Notes: generated from the letters alone by a model not told the origin. Positions 106-29,721 are shown, numbered from the stretch's first letter. The stretch: DNA of 30,687 nucleotides from Saprospiraceae bacterium (GCA_043718855.1 JAYSUY010000859.1:1-30687); one strand, 5' to 3'. Program-made: numbers and translations.

Positions 106-115
106 TTTTCTGCGG

Positions 116-189
116 TGGGCCCAGCAGGAATTGAACCCGCGACCGTCTGATTATGAGTCAGCTGCTCTAACCATCTGAGCTATGGGCCC
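116..189 (-). tRNA. tRNA with CAT anticodon, most likely tRNA-Ile2 (lysidine-modified); automated tools may call it Met
   Basis: Reverse complement GGGCCCATAGCTCAGATGGTTAGAGCAGCTGACTCATAATCAGACGGTCGCGGGTTCAATTCCTGCTGGGCCCA folds as a cloverleaf. G1:C72 and no GGG/CCC anticodon stem exclude the initiator. C4:G69 and C5:G68 match E. coli TilS determinants. CCA is not fully encoded (ACCG). Confidence 0.92.
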
Positions 190-276: not shown

Positions 277-327
277 CGGCACTCCTGAATGCACAAGCAT
301 ATCTTGCACCCTAAAAATTTGCCTATC

Positions 328-2058
328 ATGCTCACTTTGGATAATTTTGAGGCAACCCTGACCTCCAAAATCGTGCAACGCGGCCACGAATATTTCAAAA
401 GTCAGGCCGTCGAAACCCTTGACGAAGACTCTCCCGGAAACTGGTCAGCGGTCGTTTCTGGCACCGAGGACTACGAAGTGGAGGTCGTGCTTTCCGGCAA
501 AACCGTCATGGAAACATCCTGCGATTGCCCTTACGATGGCGGTCCGGTCTGCAAGCATGTTGTTGCCGTACTGTATGCCTTGCGCGAGCAAGCAACAACG
601 ACGAAAAAGAAGCCCGGCAAACCCGGCAAGATGACTTTCGAGGATTTGCTGCTCAAAGTCAGTCTGGACGAACTCCGCAACTTCGTCCGTCACCAAAGGC
701 AGGGAGACCGCGAATTTGGCGAAAAATTCATGCTGTTTTTTGTTGAAAAAGACCCGGGTATAGATGTTTTGGGCAAATACGAGGGCTTGGTACGCGGCAT
801 CGTCCGCAGCAATTCCAGCCGGGGCTTCATGGAATACCGCCAAACTTTTGCCTTTGTCAAAGAAATCCGTTCAGTGCTGAATGCCGCTGACACGGCCATT
901 TCGCAGAAAAACTACCGCAACGCATTTGCCATCGCAAAGGTGATCTGCCAAGAAGTCATGCAACTGATCCAGACCAGCGACGACTCTGCCGGCAACATCG
1001 GTGGCGTGCTTTCATCAGGCATCCAGATTTTTGAAGACATCGCTGAGGCCGAAGCCACCAGCCCAGAACTGCTGAGCGAACTGCTCGGCAATTTAGAAAA
1101 GGCACTGGCAAACAAATCGTGGTTCGACTACGGCGATTATGGCTACGAGCTGCTGGCTGTCGCCGAAAAAACGGCCCTCCGAACCGAGCCAGGGACTTAC
1201 CTGCGCCTCTTGGATGCGCTGGCAAAAATCCACGTCGGGCAGTACAGCGACTACAAGCAAGACCATTTCAAAAAAGCGAAAATCCGGTTCTTGGAAAGCA
1301 TCGGTCGCGTGGAAGAAGCCGAAAAACTTGTTGCCGCCAACCTGGACGTTGTGGAGGTGCGGATGGGTGTCGTTCAGCAAGCCATTGAAAAACAGGATTT
1401 TATCAAAGCAAAGCGGCTCGTGGCCGAAGGCATCCAAATCGCTGAGGGCAAACAGCACCCCGGCACAGTCGCCAATTGGGAAAAGGTGCTGCTCGACATT
1501 GCCCAGCACGAAAACGACGTAGCGACGGCGCGCCATTTCACCCAAAAATTTGCCTTCGACCGGGGCCTGAACGTCAAATATTATCAGGCTTGGAAAGCCA
1601 CCTTCCCGCCTGTGGAATGGCCCGGGATCATCGAACAATACATCCAATCGGTGATGGAGAAAGAAAAAGCGAGGCCCCGCAAAGGCATCTGGGACAGCTT
1701 GGAACACGCCCTGTTCCTTCGGCTTTCGCCCGTTTTTATTCAAGAAGAGCAATGGGAGCGGCTGTTGAACTTCATCCCGAAAGACCCCGGAGAAAGCCCG
1801 CTTTCCACCGTTCACCCTTATTTGTCAAAACGTTATCCTAAGGAAATGCTGGCTCTCTACCTGCCCGTGCTGGAAAACCTGGGCGACAAGGCCAGCAACC
1901 GCAACGAATATCAGCGCCTCGCTGAACTGATGAAGAAGGTGAAACAGGACATAGAAGGCAGCCACGAGGCGGTAGAAGGGCTGGCCGCCGGGCTGATCCA
2001 GAAGTATCCGAGGCGGCCTGCTATGGCGGAGGAGATGAGGAAGGTGGTGAGGAGGTGA
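328..2058 (+). CDS. SWIM zinc-finger protein with C-terminal helical region (~576 aa; alternative ATG at 289)
   Basis: SWIM motif C-D-C-PYDGGPV-C-K-H (520-558) followed by VAVLYAL. N-terminus MLTLDNFE resembles that of the paralog at 25368-26732. Confidence 0.85.
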   Translation: MLTLDNFEATLTSKIVQRGHEYFKSQAVETLDEDSPGNWSAVVSGTEDYEVEVVLSGKTVMETSCDCPYDGGPVCKHVVAVLYALREQATTTKKKPGKPGKMTFEDLLLKVSLDELRNFVRHQRQGDREFGEKFMLFFVEKDPGIDVLGKYEGLVRGIVRSNSSRGFMEYRQTFAFVKEIRSVLNAADTAISQKNYRNAFAIAKVICQEVMQLIQTSDDSAGNIGGVLSSGIQIFEDIAEAEATSPELLSELLGNLEKALANKSWFDYGDYGYELLAVAEKTALRTEPGTYLRLLDALAKIHVGQYSDYKQDHFKKAKIRFLESIGRVEEAEKLVAANLDVVEVRMGVVQQAIEKQDFIKAKRLVAEGIQIAEGKQHPGTVANWEKVLLDIAQHENDVATARHFTQKFAFDRGLNVKYYQAWKATFPPVEWPGIIEQYIQSVMEKEKARPRKGIWDSLEHALFLRLSPVFIQEEQWERLLNFIPKDPGESPLSTVHPYLSKRYPKEMLALYLPVLENLGDKASNRNEYQRLAELMKKVKQDIEGSHEAVEGLAAGLIQKYPRRPAMAEEMRKVVRR

Positions 2059-2066
2059 GGTCGCGG

Positions 2067-3296
2067 TCAGAAGTTGAGTTTGTTTCCGTGCGCTATATTG
2101 AGCAAAAATTCCACAAACTCCGGGTAAAAAACCATGCGAAACTCAGTAGCCTTCAAGCGTTTGATCGCTTCGTCTTTTTCCAAGTCGTAAAAATCGACGA
2201 CCCGCTTGAAGATATCCGGGTCGTTTGTTTGTGTTCTTGCCTCGGTCAGTTTTTCGACAGTTTCACCTAAGTAAAGCAGCAGCGCAGGAAAGCCTTCGTG
2301 CTTGACGATATCTTCTTTCCGTTTTTGTTGAATGATCATGTCGTAGAAAAACTCCCTCTCGCTGGGTTTGAGGCGATCTTTTACTTTGGGGTGTTGAATC
2401 ACTTCTGCCGTGCGGAATCGAGCCATATCAAACCCGTCAAAGGCTCGCTCGACTGCTTTTTTGGCCGCATCAACCGTCATCATCAAGGCAATCGTCACAA
2501 TGACCTTATCGGGGTTGGCTTTGACCTTTTTGAGAAATTCTCGCTCAAAATCAGGGATGTTCAGTATTTGAATGTCCTCGTGATCGTGTCCCACATCGTG
2601 AAACAGCAACTCGTACTCTCGTGCTGATGTACTTCCCGGCTGGTACAAAAAAAGGCAAGCAGGCTTGTTCTTTTCGGGAGAAGTCAACAAATAATCCGTG
2701 ATTTCTCTAATGGCCTCCGGGGTTTCCGGAAGACTTCTGAATGTGCCTTTGGGCGACAGCACCAGCAGTGCGTGCCGGGCACTCGAGGCATCAACCACTT
2801 GTGCTACCCGCATGAATTTCGAGTTTTTGGCAAGTGTGCTGCCCAAGAAGCCGATGTCCACTTGTCCAGACTTTACCTTGTCGGCCACTTCTCCACTGAA
2901 ATAAAAACTGTGCTTAAAGCGGTCAAATCCGTTCAAATGCTTCCCAGGAACACTAAAAATCGGCTCGTCATCCGCCAAATCGGAGTAAGCCGTCAACTGA
3001 ACGTGCTTGAAAAATTCCTTCGTCATGGTCAGCCGCGGTTCCTGGTTTTTTGCCAACAGAGGTGCCGCCCAAAAGCCAGAACTGAATGCGATTTTTAACG
3101 GCTCATATTCCGAAAGCGGCAAGCCAAGATGAACACAAGCATTCTTAAAGTGCTCTTGTGAGCCAACCCCGTTTAACAATCGGCTAATGGTCCCTGGGTT
3201 GAGGCCGAGTTTTACTGCAAGTGCTTTTTGATTCCTGGGTTTGCCCGGCTTACCCAGTTCGTTTTTGATGCGTTGAGCGATTTTACCTTTGTCCAT
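2067..3296 (-). CDS. XRE/Cro-C1 HTH regulator fused to a putative type-2 periplasmic-binding-fold (SsuA/NMT1-like) sensor domain
   Basis: N-terminal QKALAVKLGLNPGTISRLLNG HTH. Then PLKIAFSSGFWAAPLL and FSGEVADKVKSGQVDIGFLGS, which resemble PBP2 substrate-binding motifs. No signal peptide. HTH is solid; the PBP2 call is pattern recognition. Confidence 0.7.
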   Translation of the reverse strand: MDKGKIAQRIKNELGKPGKPRNQKALAVKLGLNPGTISRLLNGVGSQEHFKNACVHLGLPLSEYEPLKIAFSSGFWAAPLLAKNQEPRLTMTKEFFKHVQLTAYSDLADDEPIFSVPGKHLNGFDRFKHSFYFSGEVADKVKSGQVDIGFLGSTLAKNSKFMRVAQVVDASSARHALLVLSPKGTFRSLPETPEAIREITDYLLTSPEKNKPACLFLYQPGSTSAREYELLFHDVGHDHEDIQILNIPDFEREFLKKVKANPDKVIVTIALMMTVDAAKKAVERAFDGFDMARFRTAEVIQHPKVKDRLKPSEREFFYDMIIQQKRKEDIVKHEGFPALLLYLGETVEKLTEARTQTNDPDIFKRVVDFYDLEKDEAIKRLKATEFRMVFYPEFVEFLLNIAHGNKLNF

Positions 3297-3307
3297 ATCA
3301 AAAATTG

Positions 3308-3365
3308 GTTGTCAATTTTGATGTAAAATTATCATTTATTGACAACACTGCAACACCCTGTTGCA
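3308..3365. promoter_or_regulatory. Candidate operators in the divergent promoter region
   Basis: Perfect inverted repeats GTTGTCAAT-N21-ATTGACAAC (3308-3346), AATTTT-N5-AAAATT (3314-3330) and TGCAACA-N3-TGTTGCA (3349-3365). Confidence 0.5.
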
Positions 3366-3508
3366 TACCCCAGAGCGAACCCAGCATCTTTGGCTCGACG
3401 CAGCCCAGGGCCTCCAAATTTCAAATCAGCATTTTCAGATGACTTTCTCGACTCGCAGCAGTGCTTGCTGCGGGCAAGGCATTGTTTTGTCAAACCAACC
3501 AACAGATT

Positions 3509-3979
3509 ATGGCACCTTCCAACAACTGCATTTGGGCTTTACTGGCGGCAGCCAGTGCAGGAGCCTTGATTTCGTTTCAAATTTTGGCTGAAACGGCCTT
3601 GAAAAACACCCTGAAAGGTGGGGTTTTCCACACTTCAGTCATCGCATTCGGCTCCGCCTTTGCTATTCTGGTCATGTACGGCCTCTGGAACGGGCTGAAA
3701 ATCTTCCCGGCTTTGGCCGAATTCAAGCCCCTTCGCGGGTTTGAGGTCTTCGGCGGGCTGACCAGAATCTTGTACCTCATTTTGGTGGTCTTTGCCTGTA
3801 CCCGGTTGGGCATTGCCAAAGCCACTTGCATTGTCATCAGTATGCAGGTTCTGGCCAGTTCTGTATTTCAGGCCAACGCACTCTTCGGCTCGCCGCTCAT
3901 TGGCTGGACTTGGGAAAAGACACTCGGCCTGCTTCTGCTGGTGCTCGGAGTCGTGTTGATGGTCGTAAAACGGGAATGA
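3509..3979 (+). CDS. DMT-superfamily transporter, YdcZ/DUF606-like (156 aa)
   Basis: About 5 TM helices. AGALISFQ, GGL, RLG...VISMQVLAS...LFG and LGLLLLVLGVVL follow the YdcZ pattern. ATG 3509 preferred over TTG 3461. Confidence 0.75.
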   Translation: MAPSNNCIWALLAAASAGALISFQILAETALKNTLKGGVFHTSVIAFGSAFAILVMYGLWNGLKIFPALAEFKPLRGFEVFGGLTRILYLILVVFACTRLGIAKATCIVISMQVLASSVFQANALFGSPLIGWTWEKTLGLLLLVLGVVLMVVKRE

Positions 3980-4048
3980 CCTCTTCTGTCCTTCCTGGTA
4001 AGGAACCGCCGATGAATACTATCTCTCAACATTTTAAATTCTATCAAA

Positions 4049-4513
4049 ATGCAAAATCAGGGACCAATAACATGGCCAACCATCATTGGGATTTTTTTAA
4101 GGTGGGTCGTAATCCCTGCAGTGTATAAGCCCACTCAAATTTATCTAGAAAACGACACGGGCCAAGACCTGACCATCACCCTAACTTATTATGAACGAGA
4201 TATCAGGGCCTCCTTCTCTCGATGGGAATTTTGGGAGGGCCAATGGCTGACAGGAACGTGTATCGTTTCCGCTGGAAGTGCGCAAATCATTGGCTCGGTG
4301 AAAGGGAATGGGAATCGAACGATAACGGTTCGCGCAACTGCTCCGGGAAAGCAGACTATACCCATGACTAAGTTTCTTCACCCCGTCGAATGGGGCCTCT
4401 TTGAAGACTCCTACCAAATGAGAATCACCCCTGACGACTTAAAGCCAGAGTTCGATCCAAGTAAGCTTCTCTTGTGGCCTTTGCGGGGCGGCTCCAAGTG
4501 GCCCCACCAATAG
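4049..4513 (+). CDS. Hypothetical protein (154 aa): short N-terminal hydrophobic stretch, then a beta-rich domain
   Basis: Open ORF with ATG after an AT-rich leader, co-directional with neighbours. Only a faint resemblance to DUF1036 (N-x-T...Y...W-x-x-G). Confidence 0.6.
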   Translation: MQNQGPITWPTIIGIFLRWVVIPAVYKPTQIYLENDTGQDLTITLTYYERDIRASFSRWEFWEGQWLTGTCIVSAGSAQIIGSVKGNGNRTITVRATAPGKQTIPMTKFLHPVEWGLFEDSYQMRITPDDLKPEFDPSKLLLWPLRGGSKWPHQ

Positions 4514-4585
4514 AAACGCTACTCTGTATCGGATGAAAGTAGCCCCTAAACAAAGTTCTCATTTCATTTTTCAACTATCAACATT

Positions 4586-5077
4586 ATGAAAGTTCTCAGT
4601 TTTCAAGGTAAAACCGTAATTGCCAGTAAAAAAACGACTGATTCCAGCACTGATTCCTGCTTCATTACCTTGGCAGCGATGTTTGGAGTTTTCTATTTCC
4701 TCGGTCATCTGGAGTACTATGGCCCCTATCTGCTTGTTGGTATAGTTTTTTGGATAACGGGCATTTTTTTCATAAATAGATGGCAAAAGAGAAGAAAGGG
4801 AGTGGTGATGGCAAAAAATTGGGATAATTTGAAAAACAACCAGACAAGTGTTTTAACCACGGTATTCGTTGAACGTTTAGAAGTGGGCATGGAGGGCGGC
4901 GGAACTGAAATGATTACAAAAATTGCTTTCGTCCACGGTTATTTTTATAGGGCTATAAACGAAACGGTAGAAGGCGACTATCATTTGTTTTTTAAAAATC
5001 GCCTGACACTGGAAATGCACCTGACTTACTGCCAATCTGACCCAGAGGTCTATTTCCTTTCTGAAATAGAGACATAA
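4586..5077 (+). CDS. Hypothetical membrane protein (163 aa, two N-terminal TM helices)
   Basis: Two hydrophobic segments followed by a basic stop-transfer RWQKRRK. AT-rich (line 4741-4800 is 19/60 GC). Confidence 0.65.
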   Translation: MKVLSFQGKTVIASKKTTDSSTDSCFITLAAMFGVFYFLGHLEYYGPYLLVGIVFWITGIFFINRWQKRRKGVVMAKNWDNLKNNQTSVLTTVFVERLEVGMEGGGTEMITKIAFVHGYFYRAINETVEGDYHLFFKNRLTLEMHLTYCQSDPEVYFLSEIET

Positions 5078-5160
5078 ACTCACTTCTGAAATTTCCTGTA
5101 CGCCTTCCGCCGTCTTCCATTTGAGCAGAAGGCAATCTCTTACATTCAAATTTGGTCATC

Positions 5161-7719
5161 ATGCAACAACAATCCGCCCCACTCGGGCCAGCCACTCCTT
5201 TGCTCGATCTACTCGACGATTTCCTCCCACCCGGAGAATCAGCAGCCCAATTCTTCGCCCTACTGAAAAAAACCCGGGGCAGCAAAAGCCAATTTAACAC
5301 CCCCTACAAAAACACCCTTCAGTCAGCCCTCACCGCCCCTGAGGCCGAACGCCAAAATGCCCGCACCTTAGAAAACATCACCGCTTGGAATTCTATCTGC
5401 ACTGTACTGCAGGGGGAGCGAAAAACCCCCGGCCTCGGTGGACACCTCGCCACATTTGCCTCTGCATCAACGCTGTACGAGGTACTTCAAAATCATTTTC
5501 TCCACGATGGGGAAGGCCTGGCTGCCGAAATTCTTCTGCCACAAGGGCACGCCAGCCCCGGTCTATACGCCCGCGCCTGGCTCGAAGGAAGGCTTTCAGA
5601 CGAGCAAATCGCCCTCTTCCGGCAGGAGACAATTGGTGGCCTGCCCTCGTACCCGCACCCACGCCGGATGCCTGATTTTTGGCAAGTGCCCACCGTCAGC
5701 ATGGGGCTTGGCCCGCTCACAGCCATTGCTTTGGCCCGAATGCGCAAGTACATCGTTTGCAGGGATTTGCACGAAAAAACGGAAGCGGTCGGGCGGGTTT
5801 GGGCATTCCTCGGCGACGGCGAACTGCTCGGCGAACCAGAGTCGCTGAGCGGAATTTGGCTCGCCGGAAAAGAGCGTTTGAGCAATCTTGTCTTTGTTGT
5901 CTCCTGCAACCTCCAGCGGCTCGACGGCCCTGTTCAGCCTTCCGGAAAAGTGATCCAGGAAGCCGAGCGCATTTTCCGGGCAGCAGGCTGGCTGGTTCTA
6001 AAAATAATCTGGGCCAGTGAGTGGGACTCGATTTTTGAACGCGACAAAAACGGAAAACTCCTCGCCCATCTCGAAGCCCTGCACGACGGTGATTTCCAAC
6101 AAATCGCGGCCTACACCGACGGGGGGAAAGTCCGAGCAAAACTCACGGGCGGCGACCCAGAAATCGCCGAAATCCTCGCCCCGTTGAGCGATGCCGAATT
6201 GCTCAATTTGCGCAGGGGCGGCCACGATGCCGAAAAGGTTTACGCCGCTTACGCCCATGCGGTTCAATCCGACCGCCCCGTCGTTATTTTGGCTAAAACA
6301 TTGAAAGGAAATAACTTAGGCTCAAAGATCGCTGCCCAAAACAATGCCCACCAGAACAAGGAAATGAGAGGAGATGACCTCGTGGCCTTCTGTCGCCGCC
6401 TCGAAATCCCGCTGAGCGACGAAGACGCAAAAGCCCTGAAATTTTACCGCCCGCCCGAAGACAGCCCCGCAATGCAATGGCTCCACGCCCGCAGAAAAGC
6501 TCTCGGCGGCTACTTGCCCGCCCGAAACGCGAAGGCGGATGCCCGCCTGCTGATTCCTCCCGACCCGTTTTTCAACTTGTACGATGCTGGAAAGAAAACC
6601 ATGTCCACGACCAAAGCCTTCGTCGAGATGCTCCGCGAAATGTTGAATCTGAGCAAGCAATTCGTGTTCATCGTCCCAGATGAGGGGCAAACTTTCGGGG
6701 CCGACTCGATTTTCAAAGAACAGCAGGTATGGAACCCCGTAGCCGACGAGGGCGTGGCCGCGCTCCCCGTTTTTTCCGGCCTGAAGGAAAGCCGAAGCGG
6801 TGGGGTTTTTCAGGAAGGCATCAACGAAGCAGGCGCATTGGCGACCTTCACCGCAGCAGGGACTTCCTACGCGCTGAATGGGGTTCCGCTTTGCCCCTTC
6901 TACATGTTCTATTCCATGTTCGGGTTTCAGCGCGTGGGCGACTCCATTTGGGCCGCTGCCGACGCTTTATGCCGTGGTTTTTTGCTTGGCGGCACGGCTG
7001 GGCGCACGACCCTCAACGGCGAAGGGCTACAACATCAGGATGGCCACTCCCACTTGCTTGCGCTGACCAACCCAGCGGTCATCTCCTACGACCCGGCCAC
7101 CTCATGGGAAGTCGCCTCGCTTGTGCGCACGGGTCTGCACCGGATGTTCGGCGACGCGGGCGGCGACCCAGATGTGATGTTTTACCTGACGCTCTACAAC
7201 GAAATTCGTCCCATGCCCGCTCGCCCGATAGAGGCGACCGACGAGGCCATCGCGCGGGGCATTTACCGACTGCAAAAAAGCGGCCTCGAACCGCAGAAAA
7301 GCCAGATCAAAGTCAACCTGCTCAGCTCTGGGACGATTTTGTTCGAAGCCCTCGAAGCAGCGAAATTGCTTGAAAACGAAGGCATTGCAACTGATGTCTG
7401 GAGCGTCACGAGTTGGACAGAACTCTACCGCGATGCCGATAACTGTCGCCAGCACAACTTGCTGAACCCCAGCGAGCCGCCCCGAAAACCGCACTTTTCT
7501 GAGGTGCTGGAAGCCGAAACAGGCGGCGTTTTCGTGGCCGTCAGCGATTGGATGCGCTTGTTGCCGGGCTGCCTCGAACCCTGGATTCCGGGGAGGTTCA
7601 TCGCTCTTGGCACCGACGGTTTCGGCCTCTCGGACAGCCGTGCCAACCTGCGCCAGCACTTCGGCATCAGCCCCGAACAAATCGTTTTTGCCGCCCAGCA
7701 ACTGCTGGCTCGCGGGTAA
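5161..7719 (+). CDS. aceE: Divergent homodimeric (AceE-type) pyruvate/2-oxoacid dehydrogenase E1 (~852 aa; TTG 5152 alternative)
   Basis: GGHLATFAS, QGHASPG, SYPHP, PTVSMGLGP, GDG...CNLQRLDGPV, AHQ, DEGQTFG, QEGINE, YSMFGFQRVGD, TTLNGEGLQHQDGHSH and GTDGFG.SDSR are all AceE-family motifs. Confidence 0.88.
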   Translation: MQQQSAPLGPATPLLDLLDDFLPPGESAAQFFALLKKTRGSKSQFNTPYKNTLQSALTAPEAERQNARTLENITAWNSICTVLQGERKTPGLGGHLATFASASTLYEVLQNHFLHDGEGLAAEILLPQGHASPGLYARAWLEGRLSDEQIALFRQETIGGLPSYPHPRRMPDFWQVPTVSMGLGPLTAIALARMRKYIVCRDLHEKTEAVGRVWAFLGDGELLGEPESLSGIWLAGKERLSNLVFVVSCNLQRLDGPVQPSGKVIQEAERIFRAAGWLVLKIIWASEWDSIFERDKNGKLLAHLEALHDGDFQQIAAYTDGGKVRAKLTGGDPEIAEILAPLSDAELLNLRRGGHDAEKVYAAYAHAVQSDRPVVILAKTLKGNNLGSKIAAQNNAHQNKEMRGDDLVAFCRRLEIPLSDEDAKALKFYRPPEDSPAMQWLHARRKALGGYLPARNAKADARLLIPPDPFFNLYDAGKKTMSTTKAFVEMLREMLNLSKQFVFIVPDEGQTFGADSIFKEQQVWNPVADEGVAALPVFSGLKESRSGGVFQEGINEAGALATFTAAGTSYALNGVPLCPFYMFYSMFGFQRVGDSIWAAADALCRGFLLGGTAGRTTLNGEGLQHQDGHSHLLALTNPAVISYDPATSWEVASLVRTGLHRMFGDAGGDPDVMFYLTLYNEIRPMPARPIEATDEAIARGIYRLQKSGLEPQKSQIKVNLLSSGTILFEALEAAKLLENEGIATDVWSVTSWTELYRDADNCRQHNLLNPSEPPRKPHFSEVLEAETGGVFVAVSDWMRLLPGCLEPWIPGRFIALGTDGFGLSDSRANLRQHFGISPEQIVFAAQQLLARG

Positions 7720-7746
7720 TTTTTCATGTCAAAATTTACGAAAACT

Positions 7747-9033
7747 ATGCTCACTGAATACAAAATGCCCGCACTCAGCAAGCCGGAAGACGACACTCAG
7801 ATAGAATACACCATTGGAAAGATCCTCAAGAAACCAGGCGACCTAGTGGCCGAAGGCGAAGAGGTGCTGGAAGTAGAAACCGTCAAAGCCAATAAAGCGA
7901 TCGAGTCTGAACACACGGGCATCATCGAAACCATTGTCGTCCGAGAAGGTCAGGAAGGCATCGTTGCCGGCGATTTGCTGTTCACCGTCCGCGTCGCTGT
8001 GGAACCGGAGGTTGCTGCGCCAACCACAATCGTGCAGCCCCCGGAACAGCTCGTTCAAGCGGAACTGCCGCCCGAACCGCTCGAAACTGCCGCCGTGCTG
8101 CCGCCCGTTTCAAAACCCAATTTGCCCAAACCCAAATCGCCGCTGCCTATCACACCGCTGGCACAGGAGATTGCAAACATCTGCTCAATAGAAATTTCAG
8201 ACATCGAAATCCCGCCGGGCAGCCTGCGCATCGGCTCAAAGATGGTGCTGGATGTCATCAAAAAACGGCTCTCAGCTGTGCCAGTTTCGAGCCTTCCGGC
8301 ACTTCGTCTGCCCGATTTTTTCGCCTTTGGCTCCATTCGTCGCGAAAAAATGAGCGGCATCGCCAAAGCCACCGCCAAAAATATGCAGGCTGCTTGGTCG
8401 AACGTCCCACACGCTTGGCTTATGGAAAAAGCCGACCTAACCGCACTCGAAACTTTCCGAGGAACGCACAAAGAAGCCGTCAAGCAGGCAGGGGGCAGTC
8501 TCACGGTCACAGTCATTGTGGCGAAAGCGGTGGCCGGTTTGCTTCGGAAATTTCCCCGCGTGAACGCGAGCGTGGACATGACCGCACAGGAAATCGTTTT
8601 CAAGGATTTCATCCACATCGGCATAGCGGTGGACACCGAGCACGGGCTGTTCGTACCTGTCATCCGCGACTGCGACCGAAAAAACATGGCCGAAATCGGG
8701 GCCGAACTGCTGCAGTTGTCATCTTTGGCAAAGGATAAAAAGTTGCCCCCGGAAAACATGGAAGGCGGTACATTCACCATCACCAACGTAGGCGGTATCG
8801 GCGGCACAAGCATTTTGCCTATCGTCAACGCCCCGCAAGCAGCCATTTTGGGCATGACCGCCGCCCAGACCGAGATGGTCTGGAACCCCGAAAAGCAGGC
8901 CGCCGAACCGCGGCCGTTGATGCAAATGACACTTGGCTTCGACCACCGATTGGTCAATGGCGGCGAAGCCGCCCGCTTTTTACGGCAGTTGAAAGCCATC
9001 TTGGAGACACCAGAATTGATGCTGGTGGTGTGA
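7747..9033 (+). CDS. aceF: Dihydrolipoamide acyltransferase E2 (one lipoyl domain, degenerate subunit-binding domain, catalytic domain), AceF-like; ATG 7726 alternative
   Basis: Lipoyl domain with ETVKA, Pro/Ala-rich linker, catalytic GGTFTITNVGGIGG...PIVNAPQAAILG and DHRLVNG. Confidence 0.85.
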   Translation: MLTEYKMPALSKPEDDTQIEYTIGKILKKPGDLVAEGEEVLEVETVKANKAIESEHTGIIETIVVREGQEGIVAGDLLFTVRVAVEPEVAAPTTIVQPPEQLVQAELPPEPLETAAVLPPVSKPNLPKPKSPLPITPLAQEIANICSIEISDIEIPPGSLRIGSKMVLDVIKKRLSAVPVSSLPALRLPDFFAFGSIRREKMSGIAKATAKNMQAAWSNVPHAWLMEKADLTALETFRGTHKEAVKQAGGSLTVTVIVAKAVAGLLRKFPRVNASVDMTAQEIVFKDFIHIGIAVDTEHGLFVPVIRDCDRKNMAEIGAELLQLSSLAKDKKLPPENMEGGTFTITNVGGIGGTSILPIVNAPQAAILGMTAAQTEMVWNPEKQAAEPRPLMQMTLGFDHRLVNGGEAARFLRQLKAILETPELMLVV

Positions 9034-9066
9034 AAACAGCAACCCTTATCAAACGGCCCCGTAAAG

Positions 9067-9184
9067 ACAGGAGTCGCCCCATCTCTGAGGCGGCTCCTGT
9101 TCGTTTGAGGCGACCCAGCAAGCAGCGCGAGTTCCACGATTCGCAGGGCAGATTTTTTACAGAAACTGCTGTGCAGTTCGGGGG
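9067..9184 (-). pseudogene. Second, degenerate copy of the tRNA locus: terminator, 3'-end remnant and upstream region joined, with ~88 nt including the tRNA body missing
   Basis: Offset to copy 1 is 8995 for part A and 8907 for part B. GAGGCGACCCAGCA (9107-9120) resembles GCGGTGGGCCCAGCA (112-126), the tRNA 3' end. The -7 box is lost. Confidence 0.65.
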
Positions 9185-9218
9185 GATGCCGCATCTTTCG
9201 TCAAAATTGACTGCGCCC

Positions 9219-9956
9219 ATGACCCTCTCCATCCCCACGCCCTGCACCCAACGCTGGGCCGATATGACTCCCGTCCGCACCGACTGCCGCTACTGCGCCG
9301 CTTGTGAGCGGCAAATCGTGGATTTCAGCACCAAAACCGACGCTGAAATACTCGCCCACCTGCGCAGCAGCGGCGGCAAAGTCTGCGGTCGCTTCCGGCC
9401 CGAGCAGTTGGAGCGGCCCCTCGTGGCGGCCCGCAGCAACTTGCGGCGCGGCGGACTGACGGCGGCAGCGGCAAGTGTGGCGGCGGTTTTGGCGGCGCAA
9501 CAGCCTGCTGCTTCGCCGGTGCCGCCGCAGCGTGTGGAGCAGCAGCAGCCAGGGGCGGGAGAGCGGGTTTTTGCAGAAAAAAAGGTGGAGAAGGATTCGG
9601 TTCGGACGGTTTCGGGGAAAGTGGTGGATGACACAACGGGCGAGCCGCTCATTGGGGCAACTGTATCTGTCAAGGGGACAACGCTGGGGGCCGTCGCTCA
9701 GTGGGACGGCATTTTCCATCTGCAACTGCCGCTCAATTTTATCCTAAAAGGTGAGATTGCTCTCAACGTTTCCTACTTTGGATACAAATCTCATACAGTT
9801 GCACTACCAGTGCAAGTACGCCGAGAAAACTTGTCAATATTGCCGATTAAGATGGAAGAAGAACGCGGCACAACTTTGGGCGGCATCGAAGTCTACAATT
9901 ATCTCGAATCTCCCCTCAAAACCCGCCTCCGCCATTTTTTCCAAAAAATATTCTGA
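9219..9956 (+). CDS. Bacteroidota CarboxypepD_reg-like domain protein with N-terminal Cys-rich motif (245 aa)
   Basis: MTLSIPTPC..RWADMTP....RYCAACERQIVDF Cys motif, then VSGKVVDDTTGEPLIGATVSVKGT...VSYFGYK (CarboxypepD_reg pattern). The ORF-track start at 9030 extends into repeat DNA. Confidence 0.75.
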   Translation: MTLSIPTPCTQRWADMTPVRTDCRYCAACERQIVDFSTKTDAEILAHLRSSGGKVCGRFRPEQLERPLVAARSNLRRGGLTAAAASVAAVLAAQQPAASPVPPQRVEQQQPGAGERVFAEKKVEKDSVRTVSGKVVDDTTGEPLIGATVSVKGTTLGAVAQWDGIFHLQLPLNFILKGEIALNVSYFGYKSHTVALPVQVRRENLSILPIKMEEERGTTLGGIEVYNYLESPLKTRLRHFFQKIF

Positions 9957-26732: not shown

Positions 26733-26838
26733 ACGTTGAGCGGTTGGGTGCTGGGAGGGGGCGAAAATACGAGGTATGTGCCAACAGTTTTGTCGAAGTG
26801 TACATCCACAGCAGGGCATTTTTCCCAGCACTACGCCT

Positions 26839-26846
26839 TACTTTTG
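26839..26846 (+). promoter_or_regulatory. Bacteroidota -7 box for sucA
   Basis: TACTTTTG, an exact TAnnTTTG match 43 nt before ATG 26890. Confidence 0.65.
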
Positions 26847-26889
26847 CGGGCTTTTTGTGTTTACCCAACTCATCCGACAGGAATTTAGC

Positions 26890-29721
26890 ATGATAAACGA
26901 TTTTTCTGCTGTGTTCAACGCACACCCACAATACATTGATACCATGTACCAGTCTTGGCTCGCCGACCCGACTTCGGTCGAAGCCGATTGGCAAGCCTTT
27001 TTCAAGGGCTTTGATTTTGCCCTCAATGCCAATTCCACACTTGGCCCAGAGGCCTCACCCCCGGCCCCTCTCCAAACGGAGAGGGGAGACACGACAAACG
27101 TGACATCGAATGCTGGTGGTGGCGGCATCACGCCTCCCCTCTCCACCGGAGAGGGGTCGGGGGTGAGGCTTGAATTCTCTGTCATCGGCCTCATACACGG
27201 CTACCGCGACCGGGGCCACACGCTCTCCACGACCAACCCCATCAAGCCGCGCAAGAACCGAAAGCCGCGTCTCGAACTGCGCGACTATGGGCTGTCGGAC
27301 AGCGATTTAGACAAAAAATTTGCCGCAGGCTTCGAGATCGGATTGCCCAACGCCACCCTTCGAGAAATCATCGAGCGGCTCCAGCAACTCTACACGGGCA
27401 ACATCGGCTTCGAGAGTACCCACATTTTTGATAAAGAAAAACGTCAGTGGCTCCGCGAGCGCATTGAGAGCCGCAAACTCAGTGCGGACTACGGTTTTTC
27501 GGTAGAAAAGAAAAAGCGGATTCTGGAAAAACTCAACGGCGCGGTGGGTTTTGAGCAGTTTTTGGCAACCAAATTCGTGGGCCAAAAACGCTTCGGTCTC
27601 GAAGGTGGCGAAGCCACCATCCCGGCGCTGGATGCGATGATCAACCGCGCTGCCGAGAGCGAAACTCCGGTGGAGGAGGTCGTGATCGGTATGGCGCACC
27701 GGGGTCGCCTCAACGTGCTGTGCAATGTGGTGGGCAAAACCTACGAGCAGATTTTCAGCGCGTTTGAAGCCAAGGAAGTACCCGACCAGATCTATGGCTC
27801 CGGCGACGTGAAGTATCACCAGGGCTATTCCTCCCAGACGCAGGCCCTCAACGGTCGCTCGGTGTACGTCAAACTGCTGCCCAATCCCAGCCACCTCGAA
27901 GCGGTGGACCCGGTGGTAGAGGGCTTCTTGCGGGCAAAATTGGACATTCGCTACAACAGCGAATTCGACAAAGTGCTGCCCATCCTGATTCACGGCGACG
28001 CGGCTGTGGCCGGACAAGGCATTGTGTATGAGGTGATTCAGATGATGAGCCTCAACGGATACAACACGGGTGGCACCATCCACTTGGTCATCAACAACCA
28101 GATCGGCTTTACCACAAACTGGGAAGATGCGCGGTCTAGCACTTACTGCTCCAGCGTGGCGGAGGTGGTGGGTGCACCGGTTTTTCACGTCAACGGCGAC
28201 GACCCGGAGGCGGTGGTGTACGCTGTGGAACTGGCTACGGATTTCCGTCAGGCCTTCAACTCCGATGTGTTCATTGATCTCGTGTGCTACCGCCGCAACG
28301 GCCACAACGAGAGTGACGAGCCGCGTTTTACGCAGCCCGAAATGTGGAAAATCATCGAGAAGCACCCCGACCCGCGCAAGGTGTACATCGACCGCCTCGT
28401 GAAGCGCGGCGACGTGGATGAGCAGTTGGCGAAAGACATGGAAGCGCGGTTCAAAAACGATTTGCAGGCCCGCCTCGATGATGTGCGCCAACACCCACTA
28501 CCCTACACCTATCAAGAGCCGGAACTGGCTTGGAAGGCACTGCGAAAAACGGCAAGTGACGCAGATTTTCAGGAAAGCCCCGATACGGGCGTGCCGCGCA
28601 AAGTGATTGACGGGATGCTGGCTCACTTGCTTTCCTTCCCCGAAGGCTTCACGCCGGTGCCGCAGATCGCCAAGTTGAACGAGGCGAAAAAACAACTCGT
28701 GGCTACGGGAAAAATCGACTGGGCACTGGGTGAATTATTGGCCTACGGCTCGCTGCTGCTGGAGGGCCGCGACGTGCGCATGAGCGGGCAGGATGTGAAG
28801 CGCGGCACGTTCAGCCACCGCCATGCCTGTATCGTCGATGCGAGCAACTATCAGGAAGTCAATCGTTTGGATGGACTTGCAGAGAAACAGGGCAAGTTTC
28901 GCATCTTCAACTCGCTGCTCAGCGAGTACGCGGTACTGGGCTTCGAGTACGGCTACTCGCTCGCTACGCCCGACGCACTGGTACTCTGGGAAGCGCAGTT
29001 TGGCGACTTCGTGAACGGGGCCAGCACGATGATCGACCAGTTCATTTTCGCAGGAGAAAGCAAGTGGCAGCGCATGAGCGGGCTGGTGATGCTGCTCCCG
29101 CACGGCTACGAAGGCCAGGGGCCGGAGCACTCTTCGGCCCGCTTGGAGCGCTTCCTGCAAGGCTGCGCCGAAAACAACGTGACAGTAGCGAACGTGACTT
29201 CGGCGAGCAATTTTTTCCACCTGCTGCGCCGCCAGCAAGTGCGGGATTTCCGCAAACCACTCGTGGTGATGTCGCCCAAAAGCACACTCCGCGCACCATT
29301 CAATCTGGGCGAAATCAGCGAGTTGGAACCAGGCAACCGCTTCCGCGAACTGATAGACGATGCGAGTGCTAATGCAAAAAAAGTGAAGCGTGTGCTGGTG
29401 TGCAGCGGCAAAATCTACTACGACTTGCTGAAACGCCAGCAGGAGGCGCAGCGCACCGACGTGGCGGTGGTGCGCTTGGAGCAGATATACCCGTTCCCGA
29501 AAATGCAGTTCGACGCGCTGTTGAAAAAGTACGGCAAAGCCGAACTGATGTGGGTGCAGGAGGAGCCTGCCAACATGGGCGCATGGAGTTATCTGGCTGT
29601 GAATCAGTCGGAATACGGCTGGAAGTGCGCCAGCCGCGCAGCGGCGGCCTCGCCTGCTACAGGTTTTGCGAAGAAGCATGAGATGGAGCAGGCGGCGATT
29701 GTGGAGCGGGCATTTGGGTGA
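26890..29721 (+). CDS. sucA: 2-oxoglutarate dehydrogenase E1
   Basis: KRFGLEGGE, GMAHRGRLNVL, GDVKYH, NPSHLE, HGDAAVAGQG...NNQIGFTT, WEAQFGDF and LLPHGYEGQGPEHSSARLERFLQ motifs. Confidence 0.96.
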   Translation: MINDFSAVFNAHPQYIDTMYQSWLADPTSVEADWQAFFKGFDFALNANSTLGPEASPPAPLQTERGDTTNVTSNAGGGGITPPLSTGEGSGVRLEFSVIGLIHGYRDRGHTLSTTNPIKPRKNRKPRLELRDYGLSDSDLDKKFAAGFEIGLPNATLREIIERLQQLYTGNIGFESTHIFDKEKRQWLRERIESRKLSADYGFSVEKKKRILEKLNGAVGFEQFLATKFVGQKRFGLEGGEATIPALDAMINRAAESETPVEEVVIGMAHRGRLNVLCNVVGKTYEQIFSAFEAKEVPDQIYGSGDVKYHQGYSSQTQALNGRSVYVKLLPNPSHLEAVDPVVEGFLRAKLDIRYNSEFDKVLPILIHGDAAVAGQGIVYEVIQMMSLNGYNTGGTIHLVINNQIGFTTNWEDARSSTYCSSVAEVVGAPVFHVNGDDPEAVVYAVELATDFRQAFNSDVFIDLVCYRRNGHNESDEPRFTQPEMWKIIEKHPDPRKVYIDRLVKRGDVDEQLAKDMEARFKNDLQARLDDVRQHPLPYTYQEPELAWKALRKTASDADFQESPDTGVPRKVIDGMLAHLLSFPEGFTPVPQIAKLNEAKKQLVATGKIDWALGELLAYGSLLLEGRDVRMSGQDVKRGTFSHRHACIVDASNYQEVNRLDGLAEKQGKFRIFNSLLSEYAVLGFEYGYSLATPDALVLWEAQFGDFVNGASTMIDQFIFAGESKWQRMSGLVMLLPHGYEGQGPEHSSARLERFLQGCAENNVTVANVTSASNFFHLLRRQQVRDFRKPLVVMSPKSTLRAPFNLGEISELEPGNRFRELIDDASANAKKVKRVLVCSGKIYYDLLKRQQEAQRTDVAVVRLEQIYPFPKMQFDALLKKYGKAELMWVQEEPANMGAWSYLAVNQSEYGWKCASRAAAASPATGFAKKHEMEQAAIVERAFG
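27051..27170. repeat. ~120-bp cruciform palindromic element inserted in frame in sucA
   Basis: Terminal inverted repeats GCCTCACCCCCGGCCCCTCTCC (27052-27073) / GGAGAGGGGTCGGGGGTGAGGC (27148-27169), 21/22. Internal hairpins CCCCTCTCC-AAAC-GGAGAGGGG and CCCCTCTCC-ACC-GGAGAGGGG. Confidence 0.85.

Follow-up and report, generated by a model that had tools for sequence, protein, structure and literature searches.

[quoted passage not shown] The locus described here raises the question of what becomes of such a complex when both are naturally missing. It lies on contig C1030 of a metagenome-assembled genome of a Saprospiraceae bacterium (G000; 1186 contigs, 88.7% complete), and the whole stretch of 30,687 nucleotides that was analysed is referred to below as the window. 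The initial annotation proposed that the E1 and E2 encoded there have diverged together into a private pair, cast doubt by implication on the lipoylation of E2, and suggested that lipoamide may not be recycled through the housekeeping E3.

The two genes are both on the plus strand, separated by an intergenic gap of 27 nt. The first (5161-7719) encodes an accessory AceE-type (homodimeric) E1 of 852 aa, read from the ATG at 5161, which matches TIGR00759 with 924.1 bits against a cut-off of 859.9. The second (7747-9033) encodes an accessory E2 (dihydrolipoyl acyltransferase, P0001) of 428 aa, in which PF00364 matches residues 19-80 (4.3e-12) and PF00198 residues 197-426 (6.7e-77). The genome contains two AceE genes, a canonical one on C216 (1168 bits) and window E1, and four E2 genes (SucB-like, Bkd-like, AceF-like on C307, and window E2), together with two complete Lpd genes, LipB and LipA. 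Each of 24 same-genus genomes has a single AceE (53-54% identical to window E1) and a single AceF-like E2 (41-46% identical to window E2), and a counterpart of the window E1-E2 pair was found in none of the 24. The SucA and FabF of this contig share 72-81% identity with same-genus proteins, so the contig belongs to the genome. Judged by gene content, the pair is accessory, additional to the housekeeping PDH genes. Base composition gives no support to a recent transfer from a compositionally different donor, because the GC of E1 (58%) and E2 (56%), as well as their GC3, match the genome (56%). The pair was probably either acquired or is an old paralogue, and flanking-gene synteny in the same-genus genomes was too poor to define an empty site. 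Further along the window (26776-29721), a SucA-type E1o (981-aa ORF) without an adjoining sucB has a GSDH-type gene next to it; the 2-oxoacid dehydrogenase genes of the genus are generally unlinked. A T9SS sorting domain and CarboxypepD_reg domains were also found with Pfam, giving the genome the look of a Saprospiraceae-type member of the Bacteroidota.

Window E2 begins with a single lipoyl domain (residues 1-85; 7747-8001, plus strand), whose face around the lipoyl-lysine is remodelled. Translation confirmed the annotated E44-T45-V46-K47-A48 at 7876-7890, with V46 encoded by GTC at 7882-7884 and the codons GTC AAA (7882-7887, plus strand) giving V46 and the predicted lipoyl-lysine, K47. The lysine, at the tip of the beta-turn of this N-terminal lipoyl domain, is invariant across 88 aligned E2 sequences, and the conserved Asp/Glu ahead of it (D-K-A/V motif) is absent from window E2: the preceding residue is D in 76 of the 88, E in 9, N in 1, G in 1 and V in the query alone. 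A survey for V-K lipoyl domains, run with E2 residues 1-90 against 1.84 billion cluster representatives, gave none: the 149 top-scoring proteins, which were the ones examined, contain 310 lipoyl/biotinyl domains, and the pairs there included DK (269), MK of the biotinyl type (16), EK (15), AK (2), NK (2) and QK (1). Taking as consensus columns those with at least 85% agreement among the other E2s, the domain departs at 5 of 15 (G11S, E12K, D46V, E51A and P53E). Moreover, its beta1-beta2 surface loop (residues 9-21; 7771-7809, plus strand) is lengthened by four residues compared with the usual form, as P8 to K47 spans 40 residues in window E2 and 36 in 68 of 87 homologues. The sole longer case among these 87, the metagenomic protein P0004, has a span of 42 and a similar insert. 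AF2 models the domain as a beta-sandwich with a pLDDT of ~95, and of 75 in the loop.

Whether K47 can be lipoylated in this setting was judged from comparable domains. In a Bacillus lipoyl domain, the correct lysine is still lipoylated in D41A, D41E and D41K variants (PMC6270654), and in GcvH, that of the same genome included, V directly precedes the lipoyl-lysine, so V-K should be a pair that the resident LipB/LipA machinery handles. GcvH differs in family and role from the window protein, a complete E2 that includes the catalytic core. Because of the Bacillus variants and the genome's own GcvH, lipoylation of K47 is expected to work, and the doubt implied at first is weak. All substitutions of Asp-41 slow reductive acylation by E1, and recognition by E1 is set by the beta1-beta2 loop together with the residues beside the lipoyl-lysine (PMC6270654). 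Residues around the lysine vary even in housekeeping copies, as the SucB-like E2 of the genome (C592) has E-K in place of D-K and the AceF-like E2 has L-D-K, with T-D-K in 11 same-genus orthologues. In E. coli, R407 at the tip of helix H1 contacts the Asp before the lipoyl-lysine (PMC8421416); a compensating change at this tip in the catalytic domain was considered, and nothing was concluded as the column is variable (S 24, G 20, K 12, R 10).

The lipoyl domain is followed by a flexible linker rich in Pro, Ala and Glu (residues 86-129; 8002-8133, plus strand; AF2 pLDDT <50 for 88-125) and then by residues 130-178 (8134-8280, plus strand), which align column for column with the subunit-binding domain of homologues. 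This is a degenerate peripheral subunit-binding domain, in which the hydrophobic core is kept and the basic patch of helix I is lost. The loss of the basic pattern that had been annotated is borne out, Q140, E141 and N144 replacing R, R/K and R, respectively. Each of these residues is unique to the query in the 88-sequence alignment, the other E2s having mostly R or K at position 140 (R 80, K 7), 141 (R 65, K 15) and 144 (R 81, K 5), and the same is true of M166, where 83 of them have D. The net charge of helix I is -2, compared with 0 to +3 in the other 87 E2s. P137, A143, I148, I150, I153, R161, I162 and V167 are retained. The loop motif G-S/T-G-x-x-GRI, first described as lost, is not wholly gone, with G158 and R161-I162 remaining. 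No match of window E2 to the Pfam E3_binding domain (PF02817) was obtained even at E<=10, nor did its segment match any solved binding-domain chain in the PDB at E<=10, whereas the equivalent segment of the housekeeping E2 matches 13 solved E2 or isolated binding-domain chains, the best match being 4QOY, in which the E. coli domain is in a crystal with E1. AF2, given the 88 sequences, predicts helices at 137-145 and 164-177 with a pLDDT of 91-95, a confidence that leans on the alignment of canonical homologues. The basic residues of helix I are known to bind E1 and E3 (PMC6270654, PMC10849603), at sites that overlap and exclude each other, located in the N-terminal part of the domain and in its loop (PMC10849603).

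The acyltransferase catalytic domain (8335-9024, plus strand) is intact, with D399-H400-R401, the DHR motif of E2 acyltransferases, in invariant columns, and its closest structures are the E2p of E. coli and A. vinelandii. Window E2 scores below the cut-offs of the NCBIfam E2p equivalogs (TIGR01348, 307.6 vs 552.1 bits; NF008814, 280.5 vs 722). Departures from consensus amount to 3 of 64 columns in the catalytic domain, compared with the 5 of 15 of the lipoyl domain and 5 of 8 in the binding domain (Fisher p=0.0015, binding domain vs rest of E2).

A similar distribution is seen in E1. The ThDP motif and the equivalents of the catalytic His and Glu are retained in an alignment to E. coli E1p (1L8A/2QTA), the motif being of the GDG...NCN type with one residue inserted and S for the first N. 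Departures at highly conserved columns are found at 15 of 29 within residues 1-100 and 9 of 22 within residues 501-550 (loop region), and at ~16% (44/279) elsewhere, some of the columns being 100% conserved. In E. coli, the N-terminal region of E1 binds the E2 binding domain (PMC6270654), and the binding segment comprises residues 1-58 (PMC10849603). The acidic N-terminal helix that docks on E2 is not recognizable in window E1, where profile and PDB alignments begin at residue 46 to 70 and where a 98%-conserved E and W are replaced by P10 and L14. In precomputed annotations, PF28598 is assigned to most AceE homologues and is missing from window E1, P0125, P0128, P0163 and P0167; this family may correspond to the N-terminal E2-docking segment (region 5161-5370 in window E1). 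As far as alignments can tell, the sites rewritten on the two partners are the known contact sites (PMC6270654, PMC10849603).

Phylogenies place both proteins apart from the housekeeping enzymes. Window E2 falls outside the housekeeping clade of the genus (100) and inside a wider Saprospiraceae-type clade, on a long branch, and window E1 is likewise excluded from the housekeeping clade of 46 members (100), its end branch measuring 1.1 where the median is 0.09. With the lipoyl domain excluded, the sister of window E2 is P0004, with weak support (66/79). Among 5.8 billion proteins, the top relative of E2 has 45% identity and that of E1 53%, and the nearest named matches are from Saprospiraceae or Chitinophagales MAGs. 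A profile built from window E2 and P0004 recovered no more members of the sub-family, the two scoring 839 bits and the next protein 436. The proposal that E1 and E2 diverged together thus holds, as the genes are 27 nt apart, both proteins are long-branched outside the housekeeping clades, and their changes cluster on known contact surfaces with the catalytic residues kept; the reading as a private pair is supported at the level of sequence comparison. In the related pair of locus L051, the acidic E/W helix of E1 and R140/R144 of E2 are both present, and the window pair is without both; E1 and E2 may therefore have changed in matched fashion across pairs, a co-variation that comes from essentially one lineage.

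The best PDB matches of both proteins (E1, 1.3e-211; E2, 1.4e-58) belong to the Gram-negative AceE/AceF PDH complex of E. coli and A. vinelandii (7B9K, 1EAA, 1L8A, 4QOY), with which the pair has a homodimeric ThDP-dependent E1 in common. Differences concern mainly the recognition elements: window E2 has one lipoyl domain where AceF has three, V in place of Asp before the lipoyl-lysine, a longer beta1-beta2 loop and an acidic or neutral instead of basic helix I, and the docking segment of window E1 cannot be aligned before residue 70. The housekeeping AceE (C216) and AceF-like E2 (C307) share families, domain order and the larger Saprospiraceae-type clade with the pair, at 53% (E1) and 42-46% (E2) identity. 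Unlike window E2, the housekeeping E2 retains D-K, and its binding domain is of the canonical basic type and matches solved structures; the housekeeping genes are unlinked, while the accessory ones are 27 nt apart. Closer parallels are P0004 (ENA) and P0011-P0013 (JGI/NCBI MAGs), in which an aceE-type E1 gene is likewise tightly followed by E2, the binding domains are weak and give no Pfam E3_binding match, and long branches fall in the clade of the window pair. P0004 also has the enlarged beta1-beta2 loop, its lysine is preceded by a non-acidic residue (N), and position 166 is hydrophobic. However, all four keep basic residues at 140 and 144, P0011-P0013 keep D-K, and V-K occurs in none of them.

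The locus of P0012, a JGI metagenome contig, also has a divergent regulator in common with the window. A putative regulator of 409 aa (2067-3296, minus strand; no Pfam match) is 39% identical (4e-83) to the product of a gene at L051:1737-2978 (minus strand), which lies divergent from the E1-E2 pair of P0012. Since a homologue of the regulator stands beside the P0012 pair, regulator, E1 and E2 are taken from gene order to be a recurring module, and the window pair is probably controlled by the divergent putative regulator. When genome contigs were searched with the regulator, the only matches were two copies of 32% identity, both from a single Saprospiraceae MAG; they sit in a duplicated 17-kb block (L054, L055) and have no E1-E2 genes near them. 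Comparison of repeats showed that the flanks of a tRNA-Met(CAT) gene (114-189, minus strand) recur ~8.9 kb away with 80-88% identity. The left copy (62-276) surrounds the tRNA gene, and the right copy (9057-9184), without a tRNA, lies just past the E2 stop and bounds an 8.8-kb block (62-115/9057-9110, 80% identity; 217-250/9124-9157, 82%; 245-276/9153-9184, 88%). The bracketed block (~277-9056) contains a SWIM gene, the regulator, a DMT gene, two orphan ORFs, E1 and E2, with no integrase between the repeats, and fits an old insertion or rearrangement. The orphan ORFs (154 and 163 aa, with hydrophobic segments; 4049-5077), situated between the DMT gene and E1 in a stretch of low GC (40-50% vs 56% for the genome), look like small membrane proteins without any redox motif, and are absent from the related locus L051. 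A CarboxypepD_reg-like ORF (9030-9956), whose listed GTG start overlaps the E2 stop, spans the right repeat copy, and its true start is probably further downstream.

Altogether, the reading favoured here, by a little over even chance, is that of a functional, specialised AceE/AceF-type E1-E2 pair whose recognition surfaces have co-diverged and which would be insulated from the housekeeping PDH. E1 would carry out ThDP-dependent decarboxylation by ordinary chemistry, presumably on a pyruvate-like 2-oxoacid, and the lipoyl group on K47 would be reductively acylated before acyl transfer to CoA at H400. K47 itself would be lipoylated by LipB/LipA, because it is the position in the beta-turn, not a flanking Asp, that directs lipoylation. 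What sets the pair apart is recognition: the lipoyl-domain surface is changed by V46 for Asp, the longer beta1-beta2 loop, E51A and P53E, helix I of the binding domain has turned from basic to acidic or neutral, and the N-terminal docking helix and an active-site loop region of E1 are rewritten. The likely outcome would be a complex that shares neither E1 nor lipoyl domains with the housekeeping PDH. Reoxidation would be provided in trans by one of the two housekeeping Lpd, acting without canonical electrostatic docking or via the retained R161 region.

The same departures could also be those of a redundant paralogue that decays under relaxed selection, its odd residues being early loss-of-function changes and its contribution to the cell little or none. 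Such an account would fit the very long end branches of both proteins, the query-specific residues at positions more than 90% conserved among homologues, the lack of an orthologue in 24 same-genus genomes and of more than one distant sister among 5.8 billion proteins, and the presence of housekeeping copies in the same genome. However, neither reading frame is interrupted along its 852 or 428 codons, the catalytic domain holds to the consensus at 61 of 64 columns, every E1 and E2 catalytic residue is retained, and the binding domain has kept its hydrophobic core while its surface changed. The changes cluster on interaction surfaces rather than being evenly spread, the GC and GC3 of the pair are like those of native genes, and a homologous regulator is retained beside a related pair. 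This pattern suggests change targeted to partner-contact surfaces, not general decay, which keeps a small but real probability. A specialised pair may also have undergone some loss of efficiency or relaxed selection, as E1 departs at ~16% of conserved columns outside the hot spots.

A further variant, which appears unlikely, goes beyond the specialised pair: the binding domain, once a basic dock common to E1 and E3, would be a private, non-electrostatic dock for its own E1 only, with E3 reached by diffusion, as for the glycine cleavage system, or replaced by another acceptor, and the complex would process a 2-oxoacid under a ligand-sensing regulator. A precedent for one-partner binding exists in mitochondria, where E2 binds only E1 and E3BP only E3 (PMC10849603). 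This parallel with the mitochondrial E2/E3BP is an analogy only, as no E3BP-like gene was seen here.

It had been argued that no E3 gene adjoins the pair, which is true within the 30.7-kb window and is uninformative, since housekeeping genes are dispersed in the genus. In a near-complete genome of the same genus (G024), aceE, aceF and both lpd genes are hundreds of kb apart or on other contigs, so an absent neighbouring lpd means little. No private E3 was found in the genome, which has two full Lpd genes, as in the genus. A 44-residue N-terminal Lpd start, cut by the contig end (C55:2682-2816), was rejected as a dedicated divergent E3, being ~85% identical to the Lpd of C332; this fragment may stem from a close paralogue or reflect strain heterogeneity within the bin. 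A complex prediction with two copies of the C332 Lpd and E2 residues 128-180 returned a score of 0.00 and a mark of 0.34, an outcome with no weight either way on binding.

It has nonetheless to be considered that the pair works without the housekeeping E3, its dihydrolipoyl group being oxidised by a different acceptor or serving as a redox relay, on the model of the mycobacterial DlaT that feeds AhpD. The helix-I basic patch and D166 are lost, no lpd gene is present in the window, and V46 replaces the Asp which, together with the Ala on the other side of the lysine, accounts for nearly all of the lipoyl-domain contact with E3 mapped in a Bacillus system (PMC6270654). On the other hand, the block encodes no oxidoreductase or CxxC protein, its orphan ORFs having the look of small membrane proteins, R161-I162 is still present in the binding domain, and the dispersal of aceE, aceF and lpd in the genus takes away the weight of the missing neighbour. 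In the glycine cleavage system, moreover, E3 is known to reoxidise the H-protein although no binding or docking domain is present. With neither an alternative oxidoreductase in the block nor an extra divergent Lpd, the suggestion that lipoamide bypasses the housekeeping E3 is unsupported; independence of the pair from E3, through a replacement acceptor or a redox relay, is unlikely.

That V46 stems from one wrong base in sequencing or assembly, with GTC standing for GAC and the true motif being D-K-A, is highly improbable: although one transversion at 7883 would restore Asp and the assembly is fragmented and metagenome-derived (1186 contigs), such an error would explain very little beside four further consensus departures and a 4-residue loop insert in the lipoyl domain and five departures in the binding domain, and the nearest relative, P0004, likewise has no Asp at this position, carrying Asn.

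The locus thus offers a natural E2 in which both the Asp and the basic patch are gone and the catalytic core is kept, together with an E1 changed at the matching surfaces, beside a normal PDH. An active pair would be a natural experiment on how two paralogous megacomplexes avoid cross-talk, on the real importance of the Asp and of the basic patch, and on the sharing of E3; it may also indicate a new substrate specificity, governed by a regulator of its own. If inactive, it would show the order in which such a complex decays. Should the binding domain prove to be a private dock, the window pair and P0004 would represent a new architectural class of these complexes.
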